Assembly (NCBI GenBank): GCA_903851045.1
Contig: CAINNF010000008.1
Coordinates: forward strand, 299 to 64,298
Source of the DNA: Candidatus Adlerbacteria bacterium
Lineage (GTDB): Bacteria > Patescibacteriota > Minisyncoccia > Phycocordibacterales > SBAW01
Length of the DNA stretch: 64,000 nucleotides
Direction of reading: 5' to 3'
The notes under the pieces were generated by a model. That model did not search any database. It was not told the origin of the DNA and was given only the letters and a program-made list of their open reading frames with translations. Shown here piece by piece: positions 1,365-50,119 of this stretch. How positions within the stretch are numbered: position 1 is the stretch's first letter; each line of letters opens with the position of its first letter. Both the position numbers and the translations under genes were made by a program.

Positions 1365-1396
1365 ACGGTAAGTATTTCATAGAAATAACGGGGGCG

Positions 1397-3040: not shown

Positions 3041-3042
3041 GG

Positions 3043-4107: not shown

Positions 4108-4136
4108 GGCTGTAGTATACTACGGGTGTAGGCGCC

Positions 4137-13204: not shown

Positions 13205-13275
13205 ACCACAAGACTATATCACAGCTTGAAACCGAGACCAGAGCCACGTTTACGATCTTCTGATAGAGTGAGTAT

Positions 13276-13839: not shown

Positions 13840-13879
13840 AAGACGATCGACGTTGTGCCGATCGTCTTGCATCTGCGTC

Positions 13880-14332
13880 TCACTCGATCCGTATCTCACG
13901 TGGATCGACCCATATCACCACCTCATCTCCATACCTGATGTTGGGGATCATTGGAGCGATGATCTCCAAAACCGAAGCATCGTGAGGATGGGCTTGTTTG
14001 GTGGAAGGGTCCGGGTGATATATCCAACCTTCACAGATCTCGGACCCAACAGCAACACCGCACCGAGAAAAGAAGAAATTTTCCGGCGGGTAGTCAGCAT
14101 GCCACGACACCCCCGTGACCGTTGGTTCCCTCAGTCGCATCGCCCACTCATGCGGGTGAATGGACACGTTGAGGGTAGCAAGGTACGACCCACTAAGGTC
14201 GATACCGCGGGCTTGAAAAAGGGGTGCTTGGAGCTCGATAGTACCCTTGCCAAAAGGGCTCGTCCCATCGACATTCGAAGCGAGGCGGTATCCTTGCACG
14301 ACGACACCTGGAACAGATTCACGACCGCACAT
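13880..14332 (-). CDS. Hypothetical protein
   Basis: 150-aa ORF with no family recognised by eye. Codon usage is consistent with the host. Confidence 0.35.
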   Translation of the reverse strand: MCGRESVPGVVVQGYRLASNVDGTSPFGKGTIELQAPLFQARGIDLSGSYLATLNVSIHPHEWAMRLREPTVTGVSWHADYPPENFFFSRCGVAVGSEICEGWIYHPDPSTKQAHPHDASVLEIIAPMIPNIRYGDEVVIWVDPREIRIE

Positions 14333-14422
14333 ATCTCACTCCTGTTTGATCGATGCCGGAGTATTTATAGCACAGTACGTCGCTTACCGCAGCCTCGCTA
14401 GCGTGAAGTCTTAAGCTACCTT

Positions 14423-31165: not shown

Positions 31166-31918
31166 TTAGTCGGCAAGCACAAGATTGGTTCCTTTTTTGC
31201 CATCAAGGCGCGACTCCTCAGTCGTCGTTTTTTCGAGCGTGCCGCCTGGCACAATTTTAAAGATTGAGTGTGTTTTCGCTAATTCGTCTACAAGAGGTTT
31301 TGAATCCCACGGATTGTATTCGAACACGATAACTGGCTTTCGCTGGAGCAGTTTCGGCATCCCTTGAAAAACCAGTGTCTCCGCACCTTCGACATCAATC
31401 TTTATAAAATGGATATCCGTCGACTGAAAAAGTTTATCCAGAGTGGTACAGGGCACCACCACCTGCCGCCCTTCGTCTTTGTTCTCCAACAAAGAGTGCA
31501 TCCCCATTTTCCTCGACAGATAGAAGGTAGCGGTCCCGTCCGTATCCGAGACCGCGCTTTGCATAATATGCACATTTGTTAGATGTTTCGTATTTTTTTT
31601 CAACAAACGAAAATTGTTCGCATCCGGCTCAAACGCGTACACATTGCCCGTCGGACCGACCAACGAAGACGCGAGCCGAGTAAAGTATCCAAGGTTAGCA
31701 CCGACATCCACCACGGTCATGCCGCTCGTGATGGTGTTTTTAAAATAGTTCGTCGTATCGATCTCGTATCGATTGCGGAGATGGTTCAGTTTTGTCTGCC
31801 AGGTGCAACTACTGGGGGGGGGAATGAGTATCTCGCCAACCACGCCCACATATCGACCACAAGCACCACAGGCTGCTTGAGAATCTGTCGCACTATCGCT
31901 ACTGAACTCATGGAGCAA
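31166..31918 (-). CDS. FkbM-family methyltransferase
   Basis: Motifs VVDVGANLGYFT...YAFEP...KIDVEGAE. Confidence 0.75.
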   Translation of the reverse strand: MLHEFSSDSATDSQAACGACGRYVGVVGEILIPPPSSCTWQTKLNHLRNRYEIDTTNYFKNTITSGMTVVDVGANLGYFTRLASSLVGPTGNVYAFEPDANNFRLLKKNTKHLTNVHIMQSAVSDTDGTATFYLSRKMGMHSLLENKDEGRQVVVPCTTLDKLFQSTDIHFIKIDVEGAETLVFQGMPKLLQRKPVIVFEYNPWDSKPLVDELAKTHSIFKIVPGGTLEKTTTEESRLDGKKGTNLVLAD

Positions 31919-35713: not shown

Positions 35714-36544
35714 CTAGACGATGTCGCCAATCAGCATGCCGTGGTCACTGCCGGGCGAGAAGTCGAGACGAAAATTCTCGACACTGAACGGATAACCTTT
35801 GGCGCCCGAAAACACCATGATACGGTCCGGTTTGGCGCCGAATTTCGCGGCAGGATGGTGCGGTGCGAGAGTTGTTTGTATCTCTGCGGGCAAAAAGTCG
35901 CGCCCATCCCACTCCTGCAAACTTGCGATCACCTCACCACCTCGATCAGTGTTGGTGTCGGCTGCGAAGACGACGCCACCATGCTGCATGCCTTGGGTGT
36001 GCAAGAATCTCCCAAGAATGCCCGTACTTCTTCTCTGGAGATCCGTATGCACACCACCACGAGTCCAGAACCCGTGGTGAGTCGCGACTCGAATAGTGCG
36101 GCCATCATGAAGCATGACGGTCGCAGCGAGCACCACGCGACTCTCGGTCTCGAGTACGAGCTGGTCAGCCAATTCACTCGGTTCGATGCGCTGGTTGTCG
36201 TTACCGACACCCTGCAAATCTCGCAGGATCCCATCTCCATGGGTGAAACGGAGGGCTCTATCCACCAGCGGGAAGGTTGAGACGATCGCGATCCCCACCG
36301 GCTCACGCCGACCGAAGATGAGATGGTCGGTCATGGGCACAAAAATGGACTGAAACTGCCACAGGTAGCCAAGCACTGAAGCCGGCACGTCCTGGAGACA
36401 CAGGACATGCGCAGGCGGCGAAATAGCACCGCTCCCCACTCCCTTGACCCACGCGAGTGTCGGTGACACGTCGTACGGATCCTTCCCCAAACAACGACCG
36501 AGATTGAGGGTCGCTATACGCACAGGACTCTGTTGACCGAACAC
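35714..36544 (-). CDS. Endonuclease/exonuclease/phosphatase (EEP) family protein
   Basis: 276 aa. IATLNLGRCLG...HVLCLQDV and a C-terminal GSDHG motif. Confidence 0.65.
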   Translation of the reverse strand: MFGQQSPVRIATLNLGRCLGKDPYDVSPTLAWVKGVGSGAISPPAHVLCLQDVPASVLGYLWQFQSIFVPMTDHLIFGRREPVGIAIVSTFPLVDRALRFTHGDGILRDLQGVGNDNQRIEPSELADQLVLETESRVVLAATVMLHDGRTIRVATHHGFWTRGGVHTDLQRRSTGILGRFLHTQGMQHGGVVFAADTNTDRGGEVIASLQEWDGRDFLPAEIQTTLAPHHPAAKFGAKPDRIMVFSGAKGYPFSVENFRLDFSPGSDHGMLIGDIV

Positions 36545-36648
36545 TCGTTCCTCCTCAAGGTGCCGAAATACAAGATAACAAAATGAATCAACCTGTCAAC
36601 AACCCGATTTTAAATTATACGTTGTCGCCTCCGTCTCGTTGGAAACAG

Positions 36649-36904
36649 TGTTACCGCGGGCGTTGTGTTGTGGTCTTGTCTGTGGGGGCGTCTTCGATCT
36701 GTCGGGGGTGCTCTTTTTCTGGGGGCACGGTCATGAGTACGGTGCTTGGGATCGGCGAGGGTTCGATCGTTATCGTGTGATTTGGTGAGAGGTGCAACTC
36801 TTCGAACGAGAGTTTCGTCGCGAGCGGGGTCTTGCCGAACAGGCGCAGGATAGCGTTGGCGATGTCTATCTTGGTTGGGTAGTACGTCTCGGTCAGGGCG
36901 GTCG
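36649..36904. repeat. Direct repeat copy 1 (about 256 bp, about 97% identical to 46250-46506): displaced 3' end of the E1-beta gene
   Basis: Direct alignment of the two stretches, from gttaccg(c/t)gggcgttgtgttgtggtcttgtctgtgggggcg to ctcggtcagggcggtcg, shows only a handful of substitutions. Confidence 0.85.
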
Positions 36905-36968
36905 GAAATGGGAAATGGGGAGGCGTCCGTTTAATCACGATTTCTTGTGGTCTAATGTTAATCTCCAT
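36651..36968 (-). pseudogene. Truncated 3' fragment of the PDH-E1-beta-like gene. It encodes the last about 85 aa, identical to the C-terminus of 46253..47407, with a new junction-derived N-terminus
   Basis: The translation ...TALTETYYPTKIDIANAILRLFGKTPLATKLSFEELHLSPNHTITIEPSPIPSTVLMTVPPEKEHPRQIEDAPTDKTTTQRPR is identical to the tail of the 384-aa E1-beta ORF. Confidence 0.6.
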
Positions 36969-37050
36969 CCGCTATGCGAATACTGTGCAGCATAGCGGGA
37001 ACCAATTACTACACCACACAATTTTCAAATTAAACGGACGCCTCCCCATT
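36914..37050. repeat. Perfect 22-bp inverted repeat (aatggggaggcgtccgtttaat ... attaaacggacgcctccccatt) flanking an about 93-bp spacer with an internal 9-bp-stem hairpin (ccgctatgc/gcatagcgg). It sits exactly at the left island junction
   Basis: Read directly from the sequence. Also preceded by a tandem ggaaatg ggaaatg. Confidence 0.6.
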
Positions 37051-37103
37051 ATCCGCTTCCTGATTGAAGCTAATATAAAAATAATTTTTAACACTTGATA
37101 TGT

Positions 37104-37574
37104 TTATTGGTTAGAAACTAGATGCTCTGCTTTCTGATCAAGAGTAATTCTAGGATTTAATTGTGTAAGTTCTTTAAGAATTTTAGAGGTTGCTTTATTT
37201 CCATACGCTTCCAAAGTCCCAATTATACTTTCGCGTACCACACCTCTCTCATCAATATAACTAACCCTAATATCTGTGAGCATTCCAACAAATGATTTAC
37301 GAAATTTAACAGATTGAATTTTTGAAGTTTCAATAGTCTTGCTAGAAATCCATTTAATCGCTCTTAATTTGTGATCAAAAATTGTAATACGGGCAAAAGA
37401 TGACAGAACTGGAATAATTAGACAGAGAATAAGCGCAAAGGACATTCCTTTTACCATACTCTCCACCGTAGCTGTCCCGGAAGTTATTCCAAGGAGAAAA
37501 AAGGCAAGAAAGAATACTCCAAATATCGTCCAAATGCCCCTTATTAAACTTGGTTGCGGTTTGTAGGTGTTCAT
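37104..37574 (-). CDS. Small 2-TM membrane protein, candidate immunity protein for the Rhs C-terminal toxin
   Basis: 156 aa. Two N-terminal hydrophobic helices (IWTIFGVFFLAFFLLGI, MSFALILCLIIPVLSSF), then an about 90-aa soluble domain. The start codon is 2 nt downstream of the Rhs stop, and the AT-rich codon usage matches the island. Confidence 0.5.
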   Translation of the reverse strand: MNTYKPQPSLIRGIWTIFGVFFLAFFLLGITSGTATVESMVKGMSFALILCLIIPVLSSFARITIFDHKLRAIKWISSKTIETSKIQSVKFRKSFVGMLTDIRVSYIDERGVVRESIIGTLEAYGNKATSKILKELTQLNPRITLDQKAEHLVSNQ

Positions 37575-37576
37575 GA

Positions 37577-40500
37577 TTATTGTTTCTTAGTTATTATACT
37601 TGGAGTTGAGTTTGCAACACCAAATGGATTGGTCGAAGGTGTAGATGAGAACGATCCGAATGATGTACTTGATTTAGAACTATTTGAAGCAGCCACGGCA
37701 GCAACAAAACCAGTTGCTACCATTTGTGTGCCTACTCCTACAAATTCTTGTGCTCCATTCATGGTAGTGTGTGATCCTGTATAGAACGCAGTGGAGCCAA
37801 AACTTGGAAGCCTTCCTGGGGTACCCGGAACAGTACCCTTTAATACTCCTCCTGTCACTCCAGTCACTACAGATTGATAAGCAAGGGTCCCGTAGTTAGT
37901 CTGCTTATTTGTAATGTAGTTTACTCCAGCAGTGGTAACAAAGTTAGCTGCTCCTGCTGTGACACCAACAGCAACAGCTCCGGCTCCCAATATACCTGCG
38001 GTCGCAGAACTTGCACCAACCACGGCACCCGTCACAGCACTACGTGCATAATCTTGAGGCGAAGAAAGGTTTGAGTAAAAATCACTTGGCCTTAACCCAT
38101 TTTGGTTGATATTGCCTAATACATCGGAACCATATTGGCTAACGCCTCCAGCAACAAATCCTACTCCAGCTGCGATACATATAACTACAGCAGGACCTGC
38201 ACATCTCCCGTTTGGATCTGATTTATTTATTGGATTGTCATTTGCATAGGAATATGAGTTAAGACTTTGAGGATCAGAAAGATTTTGCTGAGTCTCCCAG
38301 AATACCGGGTCTTCGCTAATAAACTGACCGCGAGTTGGCGATTGATATCGGGCCTGCATGTAGTTTAAACCGCTACCCGCGTCATACTCAGTGCCAGCAT
38401 ACTTGCGCTTCTCCCCTTGGTAGGCGCCTGCCTTCGTGTCGAGTCTGGTTTGTCCATACGGATAGTAATCAAGCGTCTCGATGACATTACCCGCACTGTC
38501 AGTAATGATGTTGGAGCCAGTGAGATTGTCGGTCGCGATGTAGCGGACGGTGGTGGTTGCGGTGGTGGTGCCGCCGGTGGTTGATGTAGTAACTAGTGGC
38601 TTGAACGTCGCCATGACTGCGGCCCAGGGTCCGCTGGTTGTGGTGGTGAGTTTGGCTGCTGTTGTTGAAGCGGTGGTTATGGTCGTGTCCTCGGTCGCGA
38701 GTCGCTCGTGGGTGTCGTTGTCGTCTTGGTGTTGGCGCACGGTGTAGCTGGGGGCGGGTGTCCAGGTGTCCCCCGTAGTGGCGCTCCATGCGGCTCCTAC
38801 GTAGAGTTCACTGCCGAGTGTGGTGGTGACATTGCCGGGGTTCGGGTAGCCCGTTGCTCCCGTACTGGACGCTATTTTGTCCAGTGGTGAGGATGTCGCA
38901 ACGCCTGAGTACTCTTGGACTGCAATGGATGCGGCAGTAGCGGAGGTCACGGTGAAGGAGGAGCCTCCCGTGACGTTCTTCGCGTAGTAGAGGGCGACGT
39001 GGTCACCACCGTTGGTGGTGTTCACTGCTTCGTTGATCTTGGTATAGGTGTTGCCCTTGGAGTCGGTGATGTCGTTTGCGGGGAAGGTGGTGCCGAAGAC
39101 TGATACCGCAACAACGACGAGGTCGCCTTGGGTGACAGGGTTGGGGAAAGTGACGGAACCTATGGTGCTATCGATATTCCCTTGGACGAACGTGGGGGTG
39201 GAGGTAGCTGTGGTCGTGCCTCCCCCGCTACTGGTGGCGCTGGTATTCTCAATCGTTGCCAGGTCGAGATCGTTCGCGTAGATGTGCTTGGTGGTGGTGC
39301 CTACTCCCCCGAGTTGGACGTTGTAGAGCGTGTTAGGGGTGATGGTCGTGATGGTGCCTTCGGTGAACTTGATGCGATTGCCTTGGTAGTCGTAGGCGTA
39401 GGTGGAGGTGGCCAGGCCGTTGCCTGACTGGATGAGGCGGTTGTTGTAGTCCCAGGCGTAAGTGTTGGTGCCGTCGCTCAGGAGGTTGCCATTTTGGTCG
39501 TAGGTGAGCGTGGTGGTGGCGGTCGTGGTCGCAGTGCCTCCAGCGGCGGTTGTTGTGGCCGCCCGAAGTGCTACCAGGAGCATCGACCAGTCTTGGCTGG
39601 TTGCGCCAGTGTAAGTGTCGGAGTAAGTGCTGGTGGTGGTTGCTACCTGGTAGCTGGCGGCACCGAATATCGAGCCAGTGAGGTCTTTGTAGAGCGAAGT
39701 GCGACTGGTCGTCGCGTCGACCGTCGAGTAACGTGAAAGCGTGGCGGTCACGAGGTCTCCACCGGTAACATTGGAGAGACTGATGGTCGGGTTGCCGCTA
39801 AGGCCGGTCGCAGATGCGACCTTTTCGATCGGTGATACGGTGGCCACACCGCTGAAGGATGCGACCGCGAGCTTAAAGCCGTCGGTAGCACCCGTTACCG
39901 TCACCGACACCGTCTTAGAGCCAGTCGTTGTGGCGACAAGATACCACACCTCCGACGCTATGCCGACCATGCGAGTAGAGGTCGCTTTGGTGAACGACGC
40001 GCCGTTCCATGTGGCAGAGGTGATGGTGCCAGTGCCTCCGACATCCTGCCAGATGTCTGCATACAGGACGAGCATACTACTACTGGTCGCCACAGTCTGT
40101 GTCCACGTCTTGGTGACCGGGCCAGCGTTGTAGCCAGCGTTCGTACTGGTCGACGTAGCACCCCACACAACAGTCGAGGTCGAGACACCACCCGCCATGG
40201 TCGAGGTCGAGAAGGTCGTGAGCGCAGTCACCGCATCTGGATTCGCATAGTTGGAGCCTGTGTTGCCCGTGTAGAGATAACTACCCAAAGGGCCGCTGGT
40301 GATATTGCCCAGCGAGTCATAAGTGTAGGTTTGGTTGAAGGCTCCATTTCCAACAATAGCAGTCGATGCAGATAGAAGACGATTAAGACCATCGTAGGTA
40401 TACACAACCATTTGACCGTTCGCCAGGTCAGAGTTGTCGGTACGAGAAATGATATTACCATTTGGATCATAGACGTAATGTAGATCCTGCGTCTTTGTAT

Positions 40501-43500
40501 AATGGGTACTCGTCGCGAACGTGTTCGTTACCGTGAATGTACCGCCCATGGTATACGTGCAGATAGTATCAACACCGGAGGTGGAGGCTGTCCCGCCACA
40601 AGTATAGTCAGCGGCGTTCGCCGTAGGATATCGAATGATGACGATGCCAGACCCGCCCACGCCGCCAGGCCCATTATTCGGACTTCCGCCACCTCCGCCA
40701 CTACCGGTATTCGGAGTCCCCGCACCTCCACTGTAACTTCCACTTCCGTTGCCACCGCCTCCCACACCGCCTGTGCCTCCCACGAGCCCTCCGCCGCCTC
40801 CACCACCTCCCGCATAATATGTTGCTATACCTGTAATACTACTCTGTATACCAGTACCACCATTTGCACCATATCCACTCACGGTTGCATTATTGCCGCT
40901 TGAGCCTGCCCCTCCGCCACCGCCCGAGGCATTACCAACCCCGGTACTTGCACCACCGGAATTCCCTTCCCCATTGACAGAACTTCCTCCTACTCCACCC
41001 GTTATATACCCTGTTCCAGCTCCGCCACCAGACCCTCCGCTTCCACCAGGAAGTGAGTGACCGTACCCGTCTGTTGCGCTGCCATATCCTCCGCCAGCCG
41101 CAGAGACCAGAATGCCGATAGAGCTCGTAGCTCCTTGCGAGCCATTACCAGAAACCGTCGCGGGTCCTCCGGCTCCGCCGCTTCCGACCGTCACCGTATA
41201 GGCTCCAGGCGGGATACTTATCGAAGAACTGCTTATGACCCCGCCAGCACCTCCACCTCCGCCACCATTACCGTTATTTGCACCTGAGCCACCGCCACCA
41301 CCTGCAACCACGAGAATTTGTACTGGGTTATTCTGTGCGATCGTTGTTGTTGCAGCCGCGTATGACAGCTTTGCTGTCAAGCGATACAACTGGGTAGGAT
41401 CGTACGTGTATGTTGTAGTAGCACCAGACCCAGTGATCACTTGTGTATATTGACCTGTCGGAATATATCCAGAGTACATCGCAAGTATTTTAGACGACCC
41501 GCCGTTCTCTTTTTCCCATACTGAATCAAGTAATCCTGCGCTATTAAAATTGTATTGCGCTTGAGCACTATCTGGATAGATTATAAGCGTCTGATTACCT
41601 TGGCGATCATATGAGTACTGTGTAACGAACGTTGTGCTCGTACCCACGACAGACTCGGACTCACCACTCTTGAGTCCAATCGGATTGTAGGTATATGCAA
41701 TTCTCGATGCGGTAGTGCTCGCAACACACAGTTGCCCGATACCGTTCATACACGAGTCGTAGGTATAGGTGACTTCTGTACCCGCTTGCCCTGTGTAGTC
41801 TTCAGTCAGTGAACGGTTGAGCGCATCGTAGGTGAAGTTTACCGTCTGGCTTTTCGGGTCCACTCGTTGTATGAGATTGCCGGCGGTGTCGTAGGAGTAC
41901 GACCAACTCCCAAATGTCCCATCACCCACCATATGAAGGTCTTCGGCCGTGAGTCTTCGATTGAGGCCGTCATATGTGAAATTGCGTACGTTCCCATTAG
42001 CGTCCGTGACCTTGGTAAGGTTGTTGTTAAGATCATAGATATACGTGATGGTTGCAGACGACGTGGCAGTACTATGTTCGACCACGGTGACTAAGTTACT
42101 GAACGCGTCGTTCGACAAATCTTTTACATTCCCGTTCGCATCAGTTATCACGGTGTGCCACGGCAGGTACGCATAGCCAGTCGTGCCGACCGCATTGACC
42201 GCAGTACTTACTCTCTGGAGCGAGTCATATGTATAGGTGGTGAGGAGCGAACTACTTGCCGTCGGCGACGTGTACGCGGTACTTGAGGCGAAATATGGCA
42301 ACGACTCTTTCGACAGGAGCGAGGCGGTGTTGTACACCGTATCCTTGACCACGTAGGTATTGTTCCCTGGCGCTTGAGTCCTCGTCTGTATCGTGCGCCC
42401 AAGCCCATCAAAATATTCATACGCCGTGGTACTACTTGCCGAAGACAAACGGTTCGTGGTGAGCGTGTATGACGGGAATGTGTTGTCCGTGTACGCGATG
42501 TCGGTCTTCACTACCAATGTGCTTGATGAAGTTTGGTCTGGCTGTTTGACCTGCACCAGACGCCCCACGGGATCATACACGTTCACATTCGTGAGGCCAT
42601 TTGGGTCTGTCGTTGTTGCGACCTTCCCGCTCGCGTAGTCGTAGTACACCTGCGAAGTCTGATTGAGTGCGTTCGTTGTCGACGCTGGGTAGTAGTTGAG
42701 AGCATCATACACATACTTCGTCAGATTACCGAGCGCATCAGTCGTCGTACCCACGAGCCCAAAGCTGTTGTACGCTCTGGTGGTACTCGCGTACGAGCTA
42801 CCCGATATCCAATTCTTTTCTTGGGTACGATTACCCGCACCTACTGATCCAAAAGAGAGGTTGTCGTAGAGATACTGCGTTTCCATTATTTTTGTACTAC
42901 CCACGTCCGTAAGAGTTATATCGTCGATCACATCCAGCGTTGTGCTGGCATTCGTCGCATACGTTATGTTTTTGATTACTGTATCACTCCCTACGTCCGA
43001 ATAGGTACCGTCCGAACTTCCCGACACCTCTCCCCGGTCGATCGACTGTGTCAAATCGCCCGTCGTGGTGGAATACGTATACTCGACCGCATGATCTTTG
43101 TGAGAGGAGCCCGAGCTATCAAATTCCTGGGTCATGTGTTTCGATAGGTACACGAATGAGCGACCGTTCCCTTCGTCAGTTGTATCCCATCGACTGAAAA
43201 TACGCTTCAGAAGAGTTCCGTCTGTCTTCTTGGTGTCTTGGCGAAAAACGTGCCCAATCTGTGGGTACCCGTCAGCCTGTTCACCGTCGCCAGCGGAAAC
43301 ACTATCACCCTGGTCATAATACGTGGTCAAGAGATAGTCTGGATGTGTTTCGGTGATTGTGTAAAAACCAGCAAATTTACGGTCCTGCGGAGCAGCGACA
43401 TTGAGATACAGCTTACCGCCACTGTAAGCATAATCCGTTTCTGTACTGTTTCCATCATTATCGTTGGTAACGATTTTCGACACCAACAGAAGTGACATGG

Positions 43501-44524
43501 GCATGTGCGAATTCGTGCCTGTTTGTGGTGATGGGACATATGACACCTGCGTATTGCCACCCTTGGGATAGGTAATTTGAGTAAGAACGTCTTGGCGGGT
43601 GGTATTGTTCCTTATATTTTCATTATCTGGTATCCCATCACCATCCCAATCGACATACTCGTTATTTCTTTCTGTGTCATATTGATCGTATATAGTCGCA
43701 TACGTGGGAAGCGCTATGGTACTTGTAGCCCAGCCTGAACCGGTATTTAACAAGACCAAATTAAATCCATTTGAAATTTCGGCATTTCCGTGTGTGTTTC
43801 CAGCAATGGGGCTATAGTATGAGCGAACAAAATCCGGCAATCCATCACCGTTAACATCCATAAACCGCATGCCTCGATCAAAAAACTGATGACTCCCTGT
43901 GTTGTAGTAATAGGTTGACGTTGCAAGATTCCAAACTGAAGAGCAGGTGCCTCCTCTTCCGACCCACCCTGTACCATTATTCAGACAAAAATAGGTATTG
44001 TTATTGTCCGAATACACCCAATCATCTAGACCGTCACTATTTACATCTATGAGTTGAGAGTTAGAAATAGGTCCATTAATGTCAGGCATGGGCATAACTG
44101 TCGGGAACAGGTCACTTGTTCTCCAACCACTTCCATTCCCTAAATAGGTACCGTCATAACCCTCTTCGTAAATATTTGATGCGTAGTCTACATATCCATC
44201 TCCATTGAAGTTTCCTAGGAGGCCAGCAGTAAGTGTGGCATATGCTCCTGGAAAATATACCGCCACAGGAGGTATGTTCAAGGTCGAAGTCGCAACGGAA
44301 GTGAACGTATACGCACCTGTTGTGCTTCCTGTGCTGTAATATAAAGTGGCACCATCGTGATTAACGTAACTATGCAAAACGTCGGCATATCCATCCCCAT
44401 TAACATCTATAAATCTTGTACCACTTTCATAAGCAGTTGTAGGATTACCAAAACATGCCAGGAATATGATGGGGGTGGAGTAACGCCGACACCATCTATA
44501 CCAAACGCAGGAGACCCGCCGCAC
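37577..44524 (-). CDS. Rhs/YD-repeat polymorphic toxin (TcB/TcC- or WapA-like), C-terminal portion of a gene split by a frameshift. FG-GAP/VCBS-like repeats, glycine-rich insert, YD repeats, Rhs core, glycine-zipper C-terminal toxin domain
   Basis: 2315 aa. Motifs FIDVNGDGYADVL, IDVNSDGLDDWVY, FMDVNGDGLPDFVR. Dozens of YD repeats (YTYDALNRSLTE, YVYDPNGNIISRTD, YAYDYQGNRI...). Rhs core YYPYGQTRLD...RYQSPTRGQFISEDP...DPNGR. About 208-aa hydrophobic Gly/Ala-rich C-terminus. Confidence 0.9.
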   Translation of the reverse strand: MRRVSCVWYRWCRRYSTPIIFLACFGNPTTAYESGTRFIDVNGDGYADVLHSYVNHDGATLYYSTGSTTGAYTFTSVATSTLNIPPVAVYFPGAYATLTAGLLGNFNGDGYVDYASNIYEEGYDGTYLGNGSGWRTSDLFPTVMPMPDINGPISNSQLIDVNSDGLDDWVYSDNNNTYFCLNNGTGWVGRGGTCSSVWNLATSTYYYNTGSHQFFDRGMRFMDVNGDGLPDFVRSYYSPIAGNTHGNAEISNGFNLVLLNTGSGWATSTIALPTYATIYDQYDTERNNEYVDWDGDGIPDNENIRNNTTRQDVLTQITYPKGGNTQVSYVPSPQTGTNSHMPMSLLLVSKIVTNDNDGNSTETDYAYSGGKLYLNVAAPQDRKFAGFYTITETHPDYLLTTYYDQGDSVSAGDGEQADGYPQIGHVFRQDTKKTDGTLLKRIFSRWDTTDEGNGRSFVYLSKHMTQEFDSSGSSHKDHAVEYTYSTTTGDLTQSIDRGEVSGSSDGTYSDVGSDTVIKNITYATNASTTLDVIDDITLTDVGSTKIMETQYLYDNLSFGSVGAGNRTQEKNWISGSSYASTTRAYNSFGLVGTTTDALGNLTKYVYDALNYYPASTTNALNQTSQVYYDYASGKVATTTDPNGLTNVNVYDPVGRLVQVKQPDQTSSSTLVVKTDIAYTDNTFPSYTLTTNRLSSASSTTAYEYFDGLGRTIQTRTQAPGNNTYVVKDTVYNTASLLSKESLPYFASSTAYTSPTASSSLLTTYTYDSLQRVSTAVNAVGTTGYAYLPWHTVITDANGNVKDLSNDAFSNLVTVVEHSTATSSATITYIYDLNNNLTKVTDANGNVRNFTYDGLNRRLTAEDLHMVGDGTFGSWSYSYDTAGNLIQRVDPKSQTVNFTYDALNRSLTEDYTGQAGTEVTYTYDSCMNGIGQLCVASTTASRIAYTYNPIGLKSGESESVVGTSTTFVTQYSYDRQGNQTLIIYPDSAQAQYNFNSAGLLDSVWEKENGGSSKILAMYSGYIPTGQYTQVITGSGATTTYTYDPTQLYRLTAKLSYAAATTTIAQNNPVQILVVAGGGGGSGANNGNGGGGGGAGGVISSSSISIPPGAYTVTVGSGGAGGPATVSGNGSQGATSSIGILVSAAGGGYGSATDGYGHSLPGGSGGSGGGAGTGYITGGVGGSSVNGEGNSGGASTGVGNASGGGGGAGSSGNNATVSGYGANGGTGIQSSITGIATYYAGGGGGGGGLVGGTGGVGGGGNGSGSYSGGAGTPNTGSGGGGGSPNNGPGGVGGSGIVIIRYPTANAADYTCGGTASTSGVDTICTYTMGGTFTVTNTFATSTHYTKTQDLHYVYDPNGNIISRTDNSDLANGQMVVYTYDGLNRLLSASTAIVGNGAFNQTYTYDSLGNITSGPLGSYLYTGNTGSNYANPDAVTALTTFSTSTMAGGVSTSTVVWGATSTSTNAGYNAGPVTKTWTQTVATSSSMLVLYADIWQDVGGTGTITSATWNGASFTKATSTRMVGIASEVWYLVATTTGSKTVSVTVTGATDGFKLAVASFSGVATVSPIEKVASATGLSGNPTISLSNVTGGDLVTATLSRYSTVDATTSRTSLYKDLTGSIFGAASYQVATTTSTYSDTYTGATSQDWSMLLVALRAATTTAAGGTATTTATTTLTYDQNGNLLSDGTNTYAWDYNNRLIQSGNGLATSTYAYDYQGNRIKFTEGTITTITPNTLYNVQLGGVGTTTKHIYANDLDLATIENTSATSSGGGTTTATSTPTFVQGNIDSTIGSVTFPNPVTQGDLVVVAVSVFGTTFPANDITDSKGNTYTKINEAVNTTNGGDHVALYYAKNVTGGSSFTVTSATAASIAVQEYSGVATSSPLDKIASSTGATGYPNPGNVTTTLGSELYVGAAWSATTGDTWTPAPSYTVRQHQDDNDTHERLATEDTTITTASTTAAKLTTTTSGPWAAVMATFKPLVTTSTTGGTTTATTTVRYIATDNLTGSNIITDSAGNVIETLDYYPYGQTRLDTKAGAYQGEKRKYAGTEYDAGSGLNYMQARYQSPTRGQFISEDPVFWETQQNLSDPQSLNSYSYANDNPINKSDPNGRCAGPAVVICIAAGVGFVAGGVSQYGSDVLGNINQNGLRPSDFYSNLSSPQDYARSAVTGAVVGASSATAGILGAGAVAVGVTAGAANFVTTAGVNYITNKQTNYGTLAYQSVVTGVTGGVLKGTVPGTPGRLPSFGSTAFYTGSHTTMNGAQEFVGVGTQMVATGFVAAVAASNSSKSSTSFGSFSSTPSTNPFGVANSTPSIITKKQ

Positions 44525-45900
44525 GAAACAGAACCTGATATGGCGGTATCGTTTATACCATCCCCATTAGCGTCAGCGGAGACATTTGCTTGGTCGGCAT
44601 GATGACCAAAACCATTCACATTTGACCACGTAACTGACGTACTTGCATACTGAAAAGTCATTGCTGGTAAAGTGAGTTGGGTACCGTCGATGTTTTGACC
44701 GGTTTCCTGCACGCTTGATAAAAGTGAGCGATGATTATTATTCCCTACCGAGTATGAGAGAGCATACTTTCGAACAACATGACCGTTCATCTGAGCATCG
44801 ATCTCAGACACGCGACTATCGGTTATCACTTGAAAACCGTATTTGTAGCTTGCATACGGAACACTACTAGAAGCAAGCGAAAAACTTACACTCATCACAC
44901 CATCTGTCGAACCATGTCCTGTATATAAAATTTGTGAGGGAAATATCTGATTATTCTCCTTGGTATAGCTATATTTTATGTAATTATCGTTTACGTCTCT
45001 TACTTCTTCGAGATACCAACGCGATATGGCGGTCGAACTGGCAACGTCAAATTGTCGTGACTGCGTGGTGGTGCCATACTCGTAGCGGGTGCCATTCTTG
45101 TCATATGCGGTCCACGTATTATTTGAACAGACATATTTAACAAAACTTCCATCATCCACTCGAGCGTAATACACGCCAGGTGTCGATGTTGAAGTTGAGC
45201 TTGCAAGTTCCCCATTTATAGACGAACTAAAATAGGTGTCCGTAAAGAGTTGGTCCGATCCAATTTTATTTATTCTTTCGATGTACGGGATCGAGAGAGA
45301 CCACCCATACCCCACGATACTGTTGTCGTCCAAGTTTTGACTATTGTAGTTCAGAGACAAACTTGGCTGCATACCATTACGCCCCGGTGGGATATCCAAA
45401 GGTACCCCTTGTGTTAGAGCACCTGAAGCTGTATCTACTTTGGGTGATATGGTTTGGTATGTAAAAAGTGATGGATTAGATACGGTGGGTTGCCCATTCG
45501 TTCCCAAGGTCATTGGACTTAAGCTACTTTTTGTGTTTGTCTTACCGTTCGAGTCTTCTGTTGCGGTCGAATCAGACAAAGAAGAATTTTGAACATCAGG
45601 AGTGAGTGCTGTATTCGTATCACTCGTTGTGTCTGAAGAATTAGAGTCAGATTGTGAGGCTATACCTTGCACCGCACCTCCTGTAAATGAGCCTCCCATA
45701 TCCGATGGAGGGGTTGCGTCTGCGGCAGGTGGTGTTGGGTCGGGTATGATCGATGCGTCGGCCGCAGGCGGACTTACCACATCATCCGCAAACACAGGAG
45801 CGAGTGGCGTTACAAAAAACGTAAGAACCAGCAAAAACGCGACAACCTTTCTAAAGATGTTACAGCTTGTCGACCCAACAGCGAATGTCAGTGAATACAT
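44407..45900 (-). CDS. N-terminal portion of the same Rhs toxin gene: signal peptide plus SpvB/TcdB N-terminal domain. Joined to 37577..44524 by a 1-nt frameshift at a G5/C5 run (44471-44475)
   Basis: 497 aa. Signal peptide MYSLTF...VLTFFVTPLAPVFADDVV. SpvB-domain hallmark LSLNYNSQNLDDNSIVGYGWSLSIPYIERI. The ORF overlaps the next one by 118 nt in another frame. The upstream frame becomes nonsense after the poly-C tract and the downstream frame is nonsense before it. Confidence 0.8.
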   Translation of the reverse strand: MYSLTFAVGSTSCNIFRKVVAFLLVLTFFVTPLAPVFADDVVSPPAADASIIPDPTPPAADATPPSDMGGSFTGGAVQGIASQSDSNSSDTTSDTNTALTPDVQNSSLSDSTATEDSNGKTNTKSSLSPMTLGTNGQPTVSNPSLFTYQTISPKVDTASGALTQGVPLDIPPGRNGMQPSLSLNYNSQNLDDNSIVGYGWSLSIPYIERINKIGSDQLFTDTYFSSSINGELASSTSTSTPGVYYARVDDGSFVKYVCSNNTWTAYDKNGTRYEYGTTTQSRQFDVASSTAISRWYLEEVRDVNDNYIKYSYTKENNQIFPSQILYTGHGSTDGVMSVSFSLASSSVPYASYKYGFQVITDSRVSEIDAQMNGHVVRKYALSYSVGNNNHRSLLSSVQETGQNIDGTQLTLPAMTFQYASTSVTWSNVNGFGHHADQANVSADANGDGINDTAISGSVSCGGSPAFGIDGVGVTPPPSYSWHVLVILQLLMKVVQDL

Positions 45901-46249
45901 AAAAATAAAAAATTAGTGTCGCACCTCTACGCAAATAAACTGGGCTAACTATAAAGCACAAAATATTTTTGCAAATAAAAATTAGACGTAGGAGAAAAAT
46001 ATGCTACTTGTAAAAAATCTTCTCTTCCCGAGAAACCTTTATAAATGAATTATCGCTTATCCGAGATACTTTTGGAAAGCTCAACGTGATCAAGGCTATT
46101 TTAAAAATACACAAAATGCGAATTGGAAAAATATTTTGTCAAACAAACCAAAAAGTTATCAACAGGTACATAATCCATCTCTCTTACAGTTAATGGAGAA
46201 GACTTGGCAAACTACCACCTGTACCAAAGGTACCCTTAGCGATCCATCC

Positions 46250-46506
46250 TTGTTACCGTGGGCGTTGTGTTGTGGTCTTGTCTGTGGGGGCGTCTTCGAT
46301 CTGTCGGGGGTGCTCTTTTTCTGGGGGCACGGTCATGAGTACGGTGCTTGGGATCGGCGAGGGTTCGATCGTTATCGTGTGGTTCGGCGAGAGGTGCAAC
46401 TCTTCGAACGAGAGTTTCGTCGCGAGCGGGGTCTTGCCGAACAGGCGCAGGATAGCGTTGGCGATGTCTATCTTGGTTGGGTAGTACGTCTCGGTCAGGG
46501 CGGTCG
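46250..46506. repeat. Direct repeat copy 2 (intact 3' end of the E1-beta gene), marking the right island boundary
   Basis: See copy 1 at 36649-36904. Confidence 0.85.
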
Positions 46507-47407
46507 AGGTGGGGCACGGGACGTCGGGGCACGACAGCGACACGGGGCGGGCCTTCAGTGTGATGTTGTGGTGCTGTGCCACGCGCGCGATGATCTCTGC
46601 GCCGACGCTGAACGCGCGGTGCGTCGTATCGACCGTGATGAGTCTGCCGGTCTTCTTCACCGACGCGAACACGGTCTCGTAGTCTATCGGGTTGATACTC
46701 ACGAGGTCGATGATCTCTACACCCGCGTGCGTGCCGATCAGCTCGCGCGCCTGGAGCGTCGCAACGAGTCCGTCGCCGTAGGTCACCACCGTGACCATGT
46801 CTCCCGTGACGACCACGCGTGCCTCATCGAGCGGCACCGTGTACGACTCCTCGGGCACCGCCTGTTTGGTCCCGTACAGCCAACGAGGTTCGAGCATGAC
46901 GACCGGGTTGTTGTCCGCGATAGCGGACGCGAGCAGACCTTTCGCCAGGTAGGGTGTCGACGGGATGACGACCTTCAGTCCTGGCACACTGCCAAAGAGC
47001 GCGTGGAGCGCCTGTGTGTGTTGCGGCCCATTCCCCCACTGCCGACCAAGGGCGATACGAAAGACGATCGGTACCGGGTTGCCGCCGCCGAACATGTAGT
47101 TCCACTTCGCCGCCTGGGTAAAGATAGGATCGTACGCGAGCATCGCGAACTCGACGCGGCCATGGTGCACGATCGGTCGCAGTCCGTTGATGGCGGCACC
47201 CACCGCCATGCCCGTGAACGCGTTCTCCGAGACCGGCACGTCGAGTATGCGGTCGGGATATTTTACCTTCAGCCCCGCGGTCGTCCCATCCGCGCCGTTG
47301 GGGTAGGAGACGCCAAGGCCGATGACGAAGACCGACTGGTCCTTCTCCATCGCCTGGTCGGTCGCCTCTTTCAGCGCTTCGGTGTATTTGATGATTCGCT
47401 CAGGCAT
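46253..47407 (-). CDS. 2-oxoacid (pyruvate/acetoin) dehydrogenase E1 component beta subunit (transketolase-like) with Pro/Thr-rich about 60-aa C-terminal tail
   Basis: 384 aa. Motifs VFVIGLGV...DVPVSENAFTGMAVGAAINGLRPIV...VVMLEPRWLYG. The tail SPNHTITIEPSPIPSTVLMTVPPEKEHPRQIEDAPTDKTTTQRPR is not part of a canonical E1 beta. Confidence 0.85.
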   Translation of the reverse strand: MPERIIKYTEALKEATDQAMEKDQSVFVIGLGVSYPNGADGTTAGLKVKYPDRILDVPVSENAFTGMAVGAAINGLRPIVHHGRVEFAMLAYDPIFTQAAKWNYMFGGGNPVPIVFRIALGRQWGNGPQHTQALHALFGSVPGLKVVIPSTPYLAKGLLASAIADNNPVVMLEPRWLYGTKQAVPEESYTVPLDEARVVVTGDMVTVVTYGDGLVATLQARELIGTHAGVEIIDLVSINPIDYETVFASVKKTGRLITVDTTHRAFSVGAEIIARVAQHHNITLKARPVSLSCPDVPCPTSTALTETYYPTKIDIANAILRLFGKTPLATKLSFEELHLSPNHTITIEPSPIPSTVLMTVPPEKEHPRQIEDAPTDKTTTQRPR

Positions 47408-49391
47408 AGACGTGTGTGGTTAGTTCTTGTTCGTTCGGGTATGCGGCTTTCTGTGCATCGTCGATAGCTGCGAGCACCTGGGCGCGCACGTCAGTGTCGA
47501 TCTGTGCGAGCGTCTCTTCGGTAACACCTTGGGTAAGGAGCGTCTGTCGCAAACGCTTGATACTATCGTTCTTCGATCGAACTTCGGGCGTATCCTCTTC
47601 GCGATACCCCTGTGCATCATCGAACAGCGGGGCGCTGTGCGCCATGTGTCGGTACGTCATGCACTCCAGGACCGCGGGGGTCTTGGTCTTTCGGATCGAC
47701 GCGACCAGCTCCTTCGCCTTCGCGAGCACGTCCTCGTAGTCGTTGCCGTCCGCTTTCTTGTACTGGACGCCGAACCCCGTCACGATGTGTTCGACATCAT
47801 ACTTGGGAGAGCGACGATCCTTGAGTTTGGAGTTGACCGAATAGAGATTGTTCTCGACCACCAGCAAGAGTGGGAGTTTGAACAGTGCGGACAGATTGAG
47901 CGTCTCGTACACGCCGCCCTCCTCCGACGCCCCGTCGCCGACGAACGCGACCGAGATCCCGCGCTGGTGGTTGTACGCTTGCGCGAACGCAGACCCTGCC
48001 GCGAGCGGGACGGCACTCCCGAGTATCGGCGTCGACCCGACGAAATTGACCGACTTGTCTATCATATGCATCGAGCCACCTTTGCCGTGTGCCACACCCC
48101 CTTCCTTGCCGATCATCTCGCGCACCATGGCGCGCAGGTCGCCGCCTTTGGCGAGATAATGTCCGTGCGAACGGTGGTTGCCCATCACCTTGTCCTGCGG
48201 CTGGAGCGCATCGCACACGCCGGTCGCGACCGCCTCTTGTCCCACATAAAAATGTACGAAGCTCATGATCTTGTGCTTGAGGTACAGCTGCGCGATCTCC
48301 TCTTCGGCGGCGCGCATGTAACTCATCTTGGTGTACGCGCGCAGGAGCGGCGATGGCTGCAGGTCGATGAGGATACGGCTCGCCTCGCCCTTGCGCACCA
48401 GGTCGATCGCCTCGTTGATCTTGTGGATCGGGACACGGTGCGTGATGAGATTGTCGATATTGAGCAACCCGCTTTGGTAGAGCTTGATGTAGCGCGGGAT
48501 CTCGATGCTCGGCGAGAATTGTCCGCCTTGCGTCGCCTTGATCATCTTGCCACTGCCGCCAAAGAAGTGGTTCGCGTTCTTCAGCTCCACCGTCTCGCCG
48601 GGCTTGGGTTGGCCGACCATGATGAAGCGTCCTGTGCCAGAGAGAAGTTGGAGCGTCTCTTCGATGCTGCGCGGACTCCCCGAGGTGTCGATGATGACAT
48701 CCACTTCTTTTATGCCGAACGCCTTATGGAGAGCCTCTTTGATCGACTCGTGCTTACCGTTTATATACAGGTCCGCGCCGAGCTGCTCGGCGACCGCCTT
48801 CTTACTATCATGGATATCGACGCTGATGATGGGGTACGCGCTCACCATCTTCGCCGCTTTGATGAGGTTGACCCCAAGCCCGCCTGCGCCGACGATCATG
48901 ATCCCTTCCCCCATCTTGAGATTCGCCTCCAAGTTCACGGTGCCAAGCGCGGTCGAGAGACTGCATCCCAAGAGCGCGCACAACTCCTCCGGTGTATCCT
49001 GCGGGACGGGCGTGATGCGGTTCTCCGACACGATGGAATATTCGCTGAACGTGGTGACCTTGCCGCTTTTGATGACTTTGCCGTTGAAGATGTAGGACGG
49101 AAAATCGGATTCGATACCATCCCCTTTGCGCCAATGCATGACGACCTTATCGCCCTTTTTTACCTTCGTCACGCCAGCACCGATATCCTCGACGATACCG
49201 CACCCTTCGTGACCCATGAGATGCGGGAGGAACGCCGCGTTGCCTTTGTGGCCACCGATCTCTTGGAGCTGCGAACCGCAGATGCCGCTCACCAACACCT
49301 TCACCAATACCTGACCGAACAAGAGCTCCGTCAGACCAACATCCGCGACCGTGAGCGGCGCATTGATAGCTTCGAGGACAGCGGCTTTCAT
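47400..49391 (-). CDS. Fusion protein: N-terminal Zn-dependent medium-chain alcohol dehydrogenase plus C-terminal TPP-dependent 2-oxoacid dehydrogenase E1 alpha subunit
   Basis: ADH half has MKAAVLEA...GICGSQL...HLMGHEGCGIVEDIG and GAGGLGV. E1-alpha half has YVGQEAVATGV...HRSHGHYLAKGGD...GSMHM...GDGASEEGGVYETLNLSAL...LLVVENNLYS. Continuous frame with no internal stop. Overlaps the E1-beta gene by 8 nt. The start is set at the internal MKAAVL. Confidence 0.8.
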   Translation of the reverse strand: MKAAVLEAINAPLTVADVGLTELLFGQVLVKVLVSGICGSQLQEIGGHKGNAAFLPHLMGHEGCGIVEDIGAGVTKVKKGDKVVMHWRKGDGIESDFPSYIFNGKVIKSGKVTTFSEYSIVSENRITPVPQDTPEELCALLGCSLSTALGTVNLEANLKMGEGIMIVGAGGLGVNLIKAAKMVSAYPIISVDIHDSKKAVAEQLGADLYINGKHESIKEALHKAFGIKEVDVIIDTSGSPRSIEETLQLLSGTGRFIMVGQPKPGETVELKNANHFFGGSGKMIKATQGGQFSPSIEIPRYIKLYQSGLLNIDNLITHRVPIHKINEAIDLVRKGEASRILIDLQPSPLLRAYTKMSYMRAAEEEIAQLYLKHKIMSFVHFYVGQEAVATGVCDALQPQDKVMGNHRSHGHYLAKGGDLRAMVREMIGKEGGVAHGKGGSMHMIDKSVNFVGSTPILGSAVPLAAGSAFAQAYNHQRGISVAFVGDGASEEGGVYETLNLSALFKLPLLLVVENNLYSVNSKLKDRRSPKYDVEHIVTGFGVQYKKADGNDYEDVLAKAKELVASIRKTKTPAVLECMTYRHMAHSAPLFDDAQGYREEDTPEVRSKNDSIKRLRQTLLTQGVTEETLAQIDTDVRAQVLAAIDDAQKAAYPNEQELTTHVYA

Positions 49392-49420
49392 TGGCTTGAA
49401 GTATAGTGTAAAACTAATCA

Positions 49421-50119
49421 ATGTCCAGCATCGTCGTGTACCACCCTGTCGGTCTAGGTGACCACCTCGCATGCAGCGGTATCGTGCGCACGTACGCCAC
49501 CACCCACGACCGGGTCGGGGTCTTTTGCCTAGAGCAGAACTACCCGTCGGTCTCCGCTCTCTACCGCGACCTACCGAACGTGACCGTGCTGCGCGTGCGG
49601 TCGCACCGGGACATACAGCGCTTCCGCTTGCGCAACGCGATGCATCTCACCCGCAATCATTACGACCGGGTACTCAACGTGCGGGTGCTCGACGAAGAGT
49701 CCGGTATCCAATACGAAAAGCAATTGTATCGATCCGCGAACGTACCGATCGAGAACCTATGGGACAAATTCTTGCTCCAACGAGACGCCGCGGCGGAGCG
49801 AGCACTGATGGAGAAGCTGCATGCACCCGGCGCATACCAGTTCATCCACGAAGACGCGCGCTTCCCGCTGACACCGACCAAATTGTCGAACCTCCCCGCA
49901 CTGCGACCGGACCTCGCGCTGACGAAGAACATCTTCGACTACTGCTCGGTCATCGAGTGCGCCCAGGAGATCAACGTCATGGACTCGTCGTTCATGTTCC
50001 TCGTCGATTGTCTCGACTACACTGCGCCGAACCAGAAGCGATTCATACACCGCTACGCTCGACCGAACATGCCGTGGAACCTGCCCCTCCTACGCAAGCA
50101 ATGGACCATACTCACCTAA
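49421..50119 (+). CDS. Hypothetical protein (possibly glycosyltransferase-related)
   Basis: 232-aa ORF with plausible codon usage. No confident family. Confidence 0.35.
   Translation: MSSIVVYHPVGLGDHLACSGIVRTYATTHDRVGVFCLEQNYPSVSALYRDLPNVTVLRVRSHRDIQRFRLRNAMHLTRNHYDRVLNVRVLDEESGIQYEKQLYRSANVPIENLWDKFLLQRDAAAERALMEKLHAPGAYQFIHEDARFPLTPTKLSNLPALRPDLALTKNIFDYCSVIECAQEINVMDSSFMFLVDCLDYTAPNQKRFIHRYARPNMPWNLPLLRKQWTILT

Follow-up and report, generated by a model that had tools for sequence, protein, structure and literature searches.

The 64,000-nucleotide (nt) stretch of DNA analyzed herein (the window; positions 299 to 64,298 of contig CAINNF010000008.1 from a Candidatus Adlerbacteria bacterium) carries at positions 36905-46250 a compositionally foreign island that encodes an Rhs-type toxin and a tiny membrane protein. 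The island lies exactly between two copies of a 256-nt direct repeat (DR) taken from the 3′ end of an E1-beta-like gene, and a contig from another sample holds the same locus without it. We consider it reasonably likely that the island is a non-autonomous islet whose operon encodes a Sec-exported toxin with a TcB-like RHS cocoon together with its immunity protein, that it entered the chromosome by a Campbell-type single crossover, and that it is probably decaying. The features that define its limits, in window coordinates, are the following.

46253..47407, minus strand: the target gene, E1-beta-like (Pfam Transket_pyr, 1.2e-29; Transketolase_C, 2.2e-21)
46251..46506, minus strand: DR-R, the gene-attached repeat copy, which completes the E1-beta-like gene (repeat search and alignment with contigs L002 and L003)
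36649..36904, minus strand: DR-L, the orphan repeat copy, identical in sequence to the single copy of the empty-site contig L003

The two repeat copies are 98% identical, lie 9,602 nt apart, and form the sole direct repeat of at least 35 nt in the window. Each holds the last 254 nt of the E1-beta-like gene, including its stop codon, plus 2 nt past the stop. The insertion point is 256 nt before the stop codon of this gene, which encodes a transketolase pyrimidine-binding domain and a C-terminal domain and is a member of the surrounding glycan locus. The gene stays intact, and exactly the same protein is encoded on island-bearing and empty-site contigs alike. DR-R differs from the empty-site sequence at four positions, all of them synonymous, and would represent a surrogate E1-beta 3′ end brought by the island. 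At the other boundary, DR-L is fused to 22 codons of the island to form a chimeric open reading frame (ORF) of 105 amino acids (aa; 36651-36968). The island comprises 9,346 bp of unique DNA, or 9,602 bp if one repeat copy is included, and it is filled by three ORFs, all on the minus strand, apart from one spacer of 199 nt and another of 350 nt.

Both filled and empty alleles of this locus exist in nature. Exact protein matches equate the window with contig k141_294264 of ENA ERZ27229610. Contigs that carry the island were recovered from other samples (L002, L070 and L074, all corresponding to BUCK21 scaffold_26; L075, from NCBI assembly GCA_903951275.1; and several Logan contigs) at 99.98-100% identity. 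In contrast to these, contig L003 (ERZ27313170), which derives from another sample, joins window positions 53274-46251 to 36904-34677 through one repeat copy, and its flanks are 100% identical to the window outside the repeat. L003 is an empty site. An assembly chimera was rejected as the source of the filled structure because the same arrangement is present in at least three independent assemblies and because Logan unitigs run from a repeat single-nucleotide polymorphism (SNP) into the island. Judging from their names, we take the samples to be freshwater lake metagenomes.

The filled alleles also differ among themselves in an informative manner. L002 (over 21 kb) and L075 differ from the window by only three SNPs, all in the gene-attached repeat, and at these three positions both of their repeat copies are of the chromosomal type. 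The aligned sequences show that the two copies underwent non-reciprocal gene conversion, not a shifted reciprocal crossover. Three more distant relatives lack the island at this site. In contigs L049, L026 and L028, no Rhs gene separates E1-beta from a homologue of the 276-aa downstream gene (p276), the two being at most about 100 nt apart.

The composition of the island sets it apart from its surroundings. Its GC content is 0.490, compared with 0.562 for the left flank and 0.578 for the right flank (window average about 0.56-0.58). At 300-nt resolution both transitions are abrupt: GC content falls from 0.55 to 0.33 near 36.9 kb and rises from 0.32-0.39 to 0.62 near 46.2 kb. Tetranucleotide usage departs from that of the host by z = 4-8 in all 2-kb windows inside the island, compared with |z| <= 1.3 in the adjoining host windows. 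The lower-GC segment described in the original prediction is thus real, and its limits match to the base. However, the segment is AT-richer only on average, because its GC content is a mosaic, with 0.33-0.45 toward either end but 0.58-0.61 in the stretch 38.4-41.3 kb. GC content at third codon positions (GC3) varies in the same region as follows.

43.5-45.9 kb: GC3 0.32-0.44
41.8-43.1 kb: GC3 0.57-0.67
40.4-41.8 kb: GC3 0.41-0.46
38.6-40.4 kb: GC3 0.61-0.79
Toxin tip: GC3 0.30
Small gene (156-aa ORF): GC3 0.27
35 host genes: GC3 0.70 +/- 0.06

Within the toxin gene (37577-45900), GC3 switches four times between foreign-like (0.27-0.46) and host-like (0.57-0.79) values, and this switching suggests repeated recombination among Rhs genes of lineages that differ in GC content. 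A near-identical resident Rhs paralogue was sought as a source of the host-like segments, and the best matches are only 47-63% identical. Horizontal acquisition, as the original prediction proposed, agrees both with the non-uniformity of GC, GC3 and tetranucleotide usage and with the absence of the segment from L003 and from the three distant relatives. Neither of the findings that the prediction had named as refuting it was obtained. Two statements about the flanks were partly accurate. The genes on either side do belong to a glycan locus from about 10.9 to 63 kb, but the first 10 kb or so of the window encodes housekeeping functions (histidine kinase, ThiF, SecA, MurB). Likewise, the flanks are high in GC overall but not uniformly so, with dips at 1-1000, 13-15 kb and 31-32 kb. 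The dips involve window positions 1-2000 (GC 0.43-0.53, tetranucleotide z = 4.4), positions 13001-15000 (GC about 0.51, z = 2.5), and an FkbM methyltransferase gene at 31166-31918 (GC 0.49 and GC3 0.55 within a region of 0.58-0.60). No flanking repeats were found for these three outliers.

The cargo of the island consists of the following features.

45901..46250, minus strand: AT-rich leader of the toxin gene (GC about 0.32-0.39), which forms the right-hand unique end of the island
44407..45900, minus strand: toxin ORF 1, 497 aa (Pfam SpvB, 3.9e-18)
44456..44460, minus strand: frameshift site, at which TGG (Trp, ORF 1) and GCA (Ala, ORF 2) share the G at 44458
37577..44524, minus strand: toxin ORF 2, with restored reading from 44458 (Pfam RHS_repeat, 2.6e-22; Gly_rich_2; DUF6443)
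43826-44047, minus strand: FG-GAP beta-propeller region (weak FG-GAP_3 match of 21.1 bits, below the 26.9-bit curated cut-off)
40628-41353, minus strand: Gly_rich_2 insert (Pfam, 1.4e-19)
39557-40162 and 38594-39199, minus strand: two paralogous modules of about 200 aa in the RHS shell (43% identity over 75 aa, E = 2e-8)
38207..38467, minus strand: RHS repeat-associated core (NCBIfam TIGR03696, 3.3e-15, 56.4 bits versus a cutoff of 32.5), ending ...NPINKSDPNGRC
37580..38200, minus strand: C-terminal toxin tip, about 207 aa, rich in Gly, Ala, Ser, Thr and Val
37104..37574, minus strand: candidate immunity gene, 156 aa, with two N-terminal transmembrane (TM) helices and a soluble tail of about 90 aa (GC 0.35)

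The assignment of this gene as an Rhs polymorphic toxin is borne out by Pfam matches to RHS_repeat (79 bits, cutoff 22), SpvB and FG-GAP, by NCBIfam matches to YD_repeat_2x (8.8e-13) and Rhs_assc_core, and by PDB matches of the shell to Rhs proteins, Tse5 and RhsA. The expectation that the island holds only this toxin and a tiny membrane-protein gene was also correct, except that the single giant gene envisioned is in fact two overlapping ORFs created by a frameshift. ORF 1 begins with a Sec-type signal peptide at about aa 17-39 (...PVFA|DD; hydrophobic segment 12-42), followed by a linker rich in S, T and D, the SpvB/TcB N-terminal domain, and an out-of-frame end past the frameshift. In the PDB, this N-terminus matches YenB (2.4e-5) and SpvB. 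The propeller that follows in ORF 2 is better supported by homologues annotated as FG-GAP or FG-GAP_3 than by its own Pfam score. In the leader, sigma-70-like hexamers occur at 46162-46133, 46078-46049 and 45975-45948, although these are consensus matches only and their count is not above that in shuffled sequences.

The RHS shell is unusually decorated, in that it carries the Gly_rich_2 insert as well as the two modules of about 200 aa, which have Thr-rich linkers on their sides, no Pfam match, and host-like GC3. The RHS core bears a PxxxxDPxGL-type end motif ahead of the variable tip, and the drop in GC and GC3 falls at the boundary between core and tip (about 38.2-38.35 kb). The second Asp of the aspartyl autoprotease (SEDP) is conserved, whereas the usual first-Asp site, RYYDP, reads RYQSP here. 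This first position is variable in homologues from the clade (YYNGN, YYASS, YYDSA).

ORF 1 and ORF 2 overlap by 118 nt in different frames. Three-frame translation and blastx against contig L041, from Candidatus Kaiserbacteria, place a 1-nt deletion at 44458, where an inferred TGGGCA is short of one G. With the frame restored (...PPPSYSW-ACFGNP...), the gene encodes a protein of 2774 aa. The L041 homologue is continuous across the site as a single 2079-aa ORF, and a query that spans the break is matched over 100% of its length by several of the top database homologues. Clusters at 90% identity for both ORFs hold split or truncated forms only, with no intact near-identical protein on record. 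Because all near-identical forms are split or truncated, the toxin gene has most likely been inactivated in every sampled copy. By descent, the protein is an Rhs/YD-repeat polymorphic toxin whose gene is probably now a pseudogene, and the cassette has probably kept its immunity gene while the toxin decays.

The toxin tip has no Pfam or NCBIfam match, and a tip profile searched against PDB sequences returned nothing better than E = 0.43. Regardless, an exhaustive HMMER search revealed a family: it recovered 76 further cluster representatives (E <= 1e-10 for 32), in proteins that range from 200 to 3,177 aa. The tip is C-terminal in the approximately 45 carriers inspected, and in every carrier that includes upstream sequence it comes after the same Rhs core motif. 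The invariant residues of the family are Q28, Y57, G64, T122, G135, P138, G148 and H150, and its most prominent motif is PGVPGRLPNFGTxAFFTGxHT. The glycine-rich helices of the tip are predicted to be able to span a membrane, and structure modeling predicts a Tim17/OEP16-like four-helix membrane bundle. By analogy with known pore-forming toxins, the tip might insert into the membrane of a target cell, form a channel, and depolarize the target.

The candidate immunity gene begins with an ATG located 2 nt after the stop codon of the toxin. Among tip homologues, four (on L079, L080 and two further contigs) are followed after 3-18 nt by an ORF of 153-165 aa, and the three of these downstream ORFs for which a translation was obtained share the layout of the 156-aa ORF and show 17-26% identity to it, a divergence typical of immunity families. 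Given the translational coupling and the presence of ORFs of the same architecture downstream of four homologous tips, the 156-aa ORF would encode a two-TM immunity protein, in agreement with the original prediction. A word-index homology search with this ORF found nothing, and Pfam, NCBIfam and PDB searches returned only noise. The ORF is uncalled in the source assemblies, in that L001 lacks it and L002 has only 59 aa of it; the presumed reason is its GC content of 0.35, which is far from the host model used by the gene caller. It is therefore absent from protein databases.

Homologous modules also occur as orphans. L080 (2-3471) carries Rhs ends and immunity genes in tandem, encoding a 334-aa Rhs end, a 154-aa protein, a 481-aa Rhs end and a 165-aa protein. 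A gene for a large serine recombinase of 571 aa immediately precedes one orphan tip/immunity pair, and a second such pair is situated two genes away from a Y1 (IS200/IS605-type) transposase.

One additional structure marks the left end of the island.

36904..37060, no strand assigned: extended hairpin of 157 nt, formed by an inverted repeat (RNA fold -82.3 kcal/mol, z = -7.7)

The base of this hairpin abuts the orphan repeat copy, and its arms share the exact 21-mer ATGGGGAGGCGTCCGTTTAAT at 36915-36935 and 37029-37049. It has no Rfam match. Its two inverted arms are copies of a motif of about 38 nt (..ATTAAACGGACGCCTCCCCATTTcC..; TATTTkkrAATyAAACGGACGCCTCCCCATTTaCC), for which only four copies are known. 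Scans for the exact 21-mer in Joint Genome Institute (JGI) metagenome contigs and for the 17-mer AACGGACGCCTCCCCAT in viral contigs gave one meaningful match, the unrelated AT-rich metagenome contig L076. There, the 38-nt motif forms direct repeats (188-225 and 1235-1272) that bracket a 1,047-bp cassette encoding a fused MNT-HepT protein (nucleotidyltransferase plus HEPN RNase), and each copy lies about 35-55 nt downstream of a gene. Two 17-mer matches in viral contigs look like chance within GC-rich sequence. We rejected the idea that the motif is a DNA uptake sequence because it is absent from the host flanks and from 1.24 Mb of relatives' loci, being confined here to one contig.

How the island arrived was left open by the original prediction, which had noted the lack of a mobility gene. 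Indeed, no integrase, transposase or relaxase is encoded in the island, and no recombinase Pfam family was detected among the window ORFs tested. There is no room for a recombinase because the spacers amount to only 199 nt and 350 nt. Nonetheless, the 256-bp duplication of the target gene at the boundaries now favors one route. The substrate would be circularized DNA from a closely related strain that carries an E1-beta 3′ end and the cassette, and the homologous recombination machinery of the host would join this circle to the chromosome by a single crossover (Campbell integration). The surrogate 3′ end would keep E1-beta intact, and the original gene end would be displaced by 9.6 kb as an orphan. 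The repeats have since continued to recombine, which gave rise to the gene-conversion variant and possibly to the precise empty site. A single crossover is suggested because duplication of the target end, with donor-type synonymous variants in the promoter-proximal copy, is its expected product. Furthermore, the conversion seen in L002 indicates that homologous recombination acts on the repeats. Natural competence and recombination-based integration have been shown in Patescibacteria (PMC10633639; PMC11665869).

Several points weigh against this interpretation. No circular form, donor genome or intact toxin allele was found. Competence imports linear single-stranded DNA, and so a circular intermediate needs an extra step. 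The empty site is represented by a single contig, whose assembly used k = 141, less than the length of the 256-nt repeat. The hairpin located exactly at the junction, together with the related motif at the L076 cassette, hints at a site-specific component beyond simple homologous recombination. With regard to the cargo, the fold model of the tip is moderately confident (mean predicted local distance difference test score, pLDDT, of 67), and its most conserved motif (PGRLPxF..AFxTGxHT) is poorly modeled and might serve in catalysis or binding instead of contributing to a pore. The proposed immunity family comprises just four sequences, at the low identities given above.

Perhaps, although we regard it as improbable, the island is instead a trans-mobilized, site-specific element that resembles cis-mobilizable elements (CIMEs), with the 256-bp segment, the hairpin motif, or both serving as an attachment (att) site for an integrase encoded elsewhere in the genome, on a phage, or on an integrative and conjugative element (ICE). 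Entry into the 3′ end of a protein gene with provision of a surrogate end is classic for integrase-driven elements, such as ICESt1 and ICESt3 at fda and their CIME derivatives, and the island likewise has no recombinase in cis and a precise empty site. It ends exactly at the base of the stable hairpin, whose arm motif recurs around the MNT-HepT cassette, and homologous orphan tip/immunity pairs reside beside or near recombinase and transposase genes. However, att cores usually measure tens of base pairs, and a 256-bp repeat at 98% identity is far longer. The conversion in L002 affects an internal tract and reveals no fixed crossover point, only four copies of the hairpin motif are known, and there is no known cognate ICE or integrase. 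Moreover, orphan E1-beta 3′ ends were sought in the loci of 66 relatives and none was found, so the E1-beta end is not a recurrent att site, and the notion of an integration hotspot at this gene is unsupported.

A separate possibility, to which we assign only a small chance, is that the toxin still functions, either as a split system comprising a secreted SpvB part and a separate shell or through a ribosomal -1 shift that produces the 2774-aa protein. The frameshift allele, including the exact 497-aa product of ORF 1, is otherwise 100% identical on 9 contigs from at least 5 samples, and there are no further disabling mutations in 8.3 kb of ORF. Tc (toxin complex) toxins, moreover, naturally divide their cocoon between TcB and TcC; the YenB match here covers only a TcB-like N-terminus. 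However, the break falls between the SpvB domain and the propeller rather than at the TcB/TcC boundary, homologues are continuous across it, and ORF 2 lacks a signal peptide and a convincing start, such that gene callers picked three different ones. Programmed frameshifting was rejected because the sequence at the break, U CCU GGC A, is not a slippery heptamer of the form X XXY YYZ, and there is no long homopolymer that would permit transcriptional slippage.

It is very unlikely that the island is an old, vertically inherited part of a resident variable locus and that the apparent empty site stems from later loss of the island between the repeats or from collapse during assembly. Excision between the repeats by a crossover within the first 118 nt would leave exactly the sequence of L003, the k-mer length used for L003 would permit a collapse, and the host-like GC3 (0.57-0.79) of parts of the Rhs gene might suggest long residence or recombination with resident genes. 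Yet GC3 at the ends of the island (0.27-0.44) remains far from that of the host, and some relatives lack the island. Because copies from different samples are 100% identical, and filled and empty alleles share identical flanks over about 8.7 kb, the polymorphism must be very recent. In addition, a mis-join in L003 would presumably need k-mers that link the E1-beta body to the chromosomal-type SNPs, which are absent from the window genotype, and the repeat itself still needs an insertion event.

An equally long shot is that the 38-nt motif constitutes an undescribed cassette-recombination site of Patescibacteria, at which a trans-acting enzyme would shuffle small conflict cassettes (Rhs tips with immunity genes, or toxin-antitoxin pairs) between genomes in an integron-like or hairpin-guided manner, with the E1-beta duplication as a by-product. 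Three other routes were rejected. Integration at a tRNA gene fails because no tRNA or known RNA was found at the boundaries, either by Rfam (E <= 1) over 36000-47000 or by scanning the entire window for tRNA and tmRNA genes. A transposon-type insertion does not fit because a 256-bp duplication far exceeds target-site duplications and the ends lack terminal inverted repeats. Lastly, homology-facilitated illegitimate recombination of a linear fragment would replace a single tract and cannot duplicate the whole anchor.

Returning to the proposed toxin and immunity operon, its logic is closest to that of the Sec-exported WapA/WapI systems of monoderms. As with WapA/WapI of Bacillus subtilis, the protein has a Sec signal, an RHS/YD shell, and a core that ends in DPxG ahead of a variable tip, with an immunity gene directly downstream. 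Neither a type VI (T6SS) nor a type VII (T7SS) secretion system is needed, which fits the monoderm-like envelope of Patescibacteria. WapA itself carries cell-wall-binding repeats and tRNase tips, whereas the island toxin has a TcB-like N-terminus (SpvB plus FG-GAP), a Gly-rich domain, two inserted modules, and a predicted membrane-bundle tip.

The TcB-TcC cocoons of Tc toxins (YenB/YenC, TcdB2-TccC3) present SpvB, an FG-GAP beta-propeller and an RHS shell in the same order, and the Tc BC-like label in the original prediction is apt as far as architecture is concerned. However, the restored island protein is one fused polypeptide and is accompanied by an immunity gene, which Tc insecticidal toxins lack, and neither the island nor the scanned ORFs of the window include one that resembles TcA. 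Because it has an immunity gene and no TcA partner, it is not a Tc toxin, and the resemblance is architectural.

A pore-forming Rhs tip is known from Tse5 of Pseudomonas aeruginosa (PMC9637101, PMC10684867), and contact-dependent growth inhibition (CDI) systems include helical ionophore tips paired with two-helix TM immunity proteins that share about 30% identity (PMC11630599). The island resembles Tse5, the CDI ionophore pairs (CdiA-CT/CdiI) and EsxX (PMC12744356) in its glycine-rich helical tip with predicted membrane insertion, its small two-helix TM candidate immunity protein, and the high divergence within the immunity family. In contrast, its tip has no detectable sequence similarity to theirs (Tse5 matches the RHS shell only), and it would be exported by the Sec route rather than by a T6SS, type V secretion system (T5SS) or T7SS. 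The predicted fold is a bundle of four Tim17/OEP16-like helices compared with the five-helix bundle of CDI ionophores, and the PGRLPxF..AFxTGxHT motif is unique to the island tip family. On the basis of sequence, then, the tip is not a member of the Tse5-CT/CdiA-CT/EsxX group, since it lacks homology to any characterized member.

The genomic setting of the island is a surface-glycan locus, which is a site of strain variation. This locus encodes Wzy_C, DegT, NeuB, two cytidylyltransferases, glycosyltransferases of the GT1, GT2, GT9 and GT47 types, FkbM methyltransferases, an ABC exporter, and the E1-alpha/E1-beta pair. The best genome matches of E1-beta are in Patescibacteria metagenome-assembled genomes (MAGs), with 93% identity over a partial match in Ca. 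Adlerbacteria and about 70-75% in Yonathbacteria, Nomurabacteria and Kaiserbacteria. The island resides in a freshwater Patescibacterium that belongs to the Paceibacteria. The neighboring E1-alpha gene (47400-49472, minus strand) encodes a 690-aa protein with a zinc-type alcohol dehydrogenase fused at the N-terminus (ADH_N + ADH_zinc_N + E1_dh), which is unusual for a glycan locus. Elsewhere in the window, an inverted repeat of 182 nt (61141-61322 and 62867-63048, 72% complementary) corresponds to two divergent paralogous GT47 (exostosin-like) glycosyltransferase genes at 60970-62145 (minus strand) and 62098-63243 (plus strand).

In Ca. Kaiserbacteria, contig L041 (JACPLC010000002.1) carries at 31-6270 the intact 2079-aa SpvB/Rhs homologue, which is 41-51% identical to the island toxin and has a different tip. 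It lies about 3.7 kb upstream of the E1-beta gene of that contig (9995-11020) and is followed by an ORF for an Rhs fragment. The neighborhood of the E1 genes may be a recurrent home of Rhs cassettes.

Rhs toxins are not new to this phylum, since a Saccharibacteria genome was reported, in a one-line annotation, to encode a secreted 2487-aa RHS/YD protein next to an immunity gene (PMC6031116). That report describes no island boundaries, population polymorphism or tip family. What is new here are boundaries defined at the base level, a presence/absence polymorphism, an integrase-free, repeat-mediated insertion, and tip and immunity families that have no Pfam or NCBIfam match. These findings do not overturn current ideas, because bacteria commonly carry Rhs islets whose tips are AT-rich and the toxin gene described here appears to be inactivated.

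Patescibacteria are a huge and mostly uncultured group that live on other cells, and little is known of their weapons and gene exchange; a recent overview of the field is silent on toxins (PMC11665869). Low-GC immunity genes in high-GC MAGs, such as the one noted here, may be systematically overlooked. The locus is a base-resolved example of an accessory cassette carried by only some of the cells in a natural population. Its proposed route of insertion would require no enzyme encoded by the element itself and is consistent with competence and homologous recombination in these organisms (PMC10633639).

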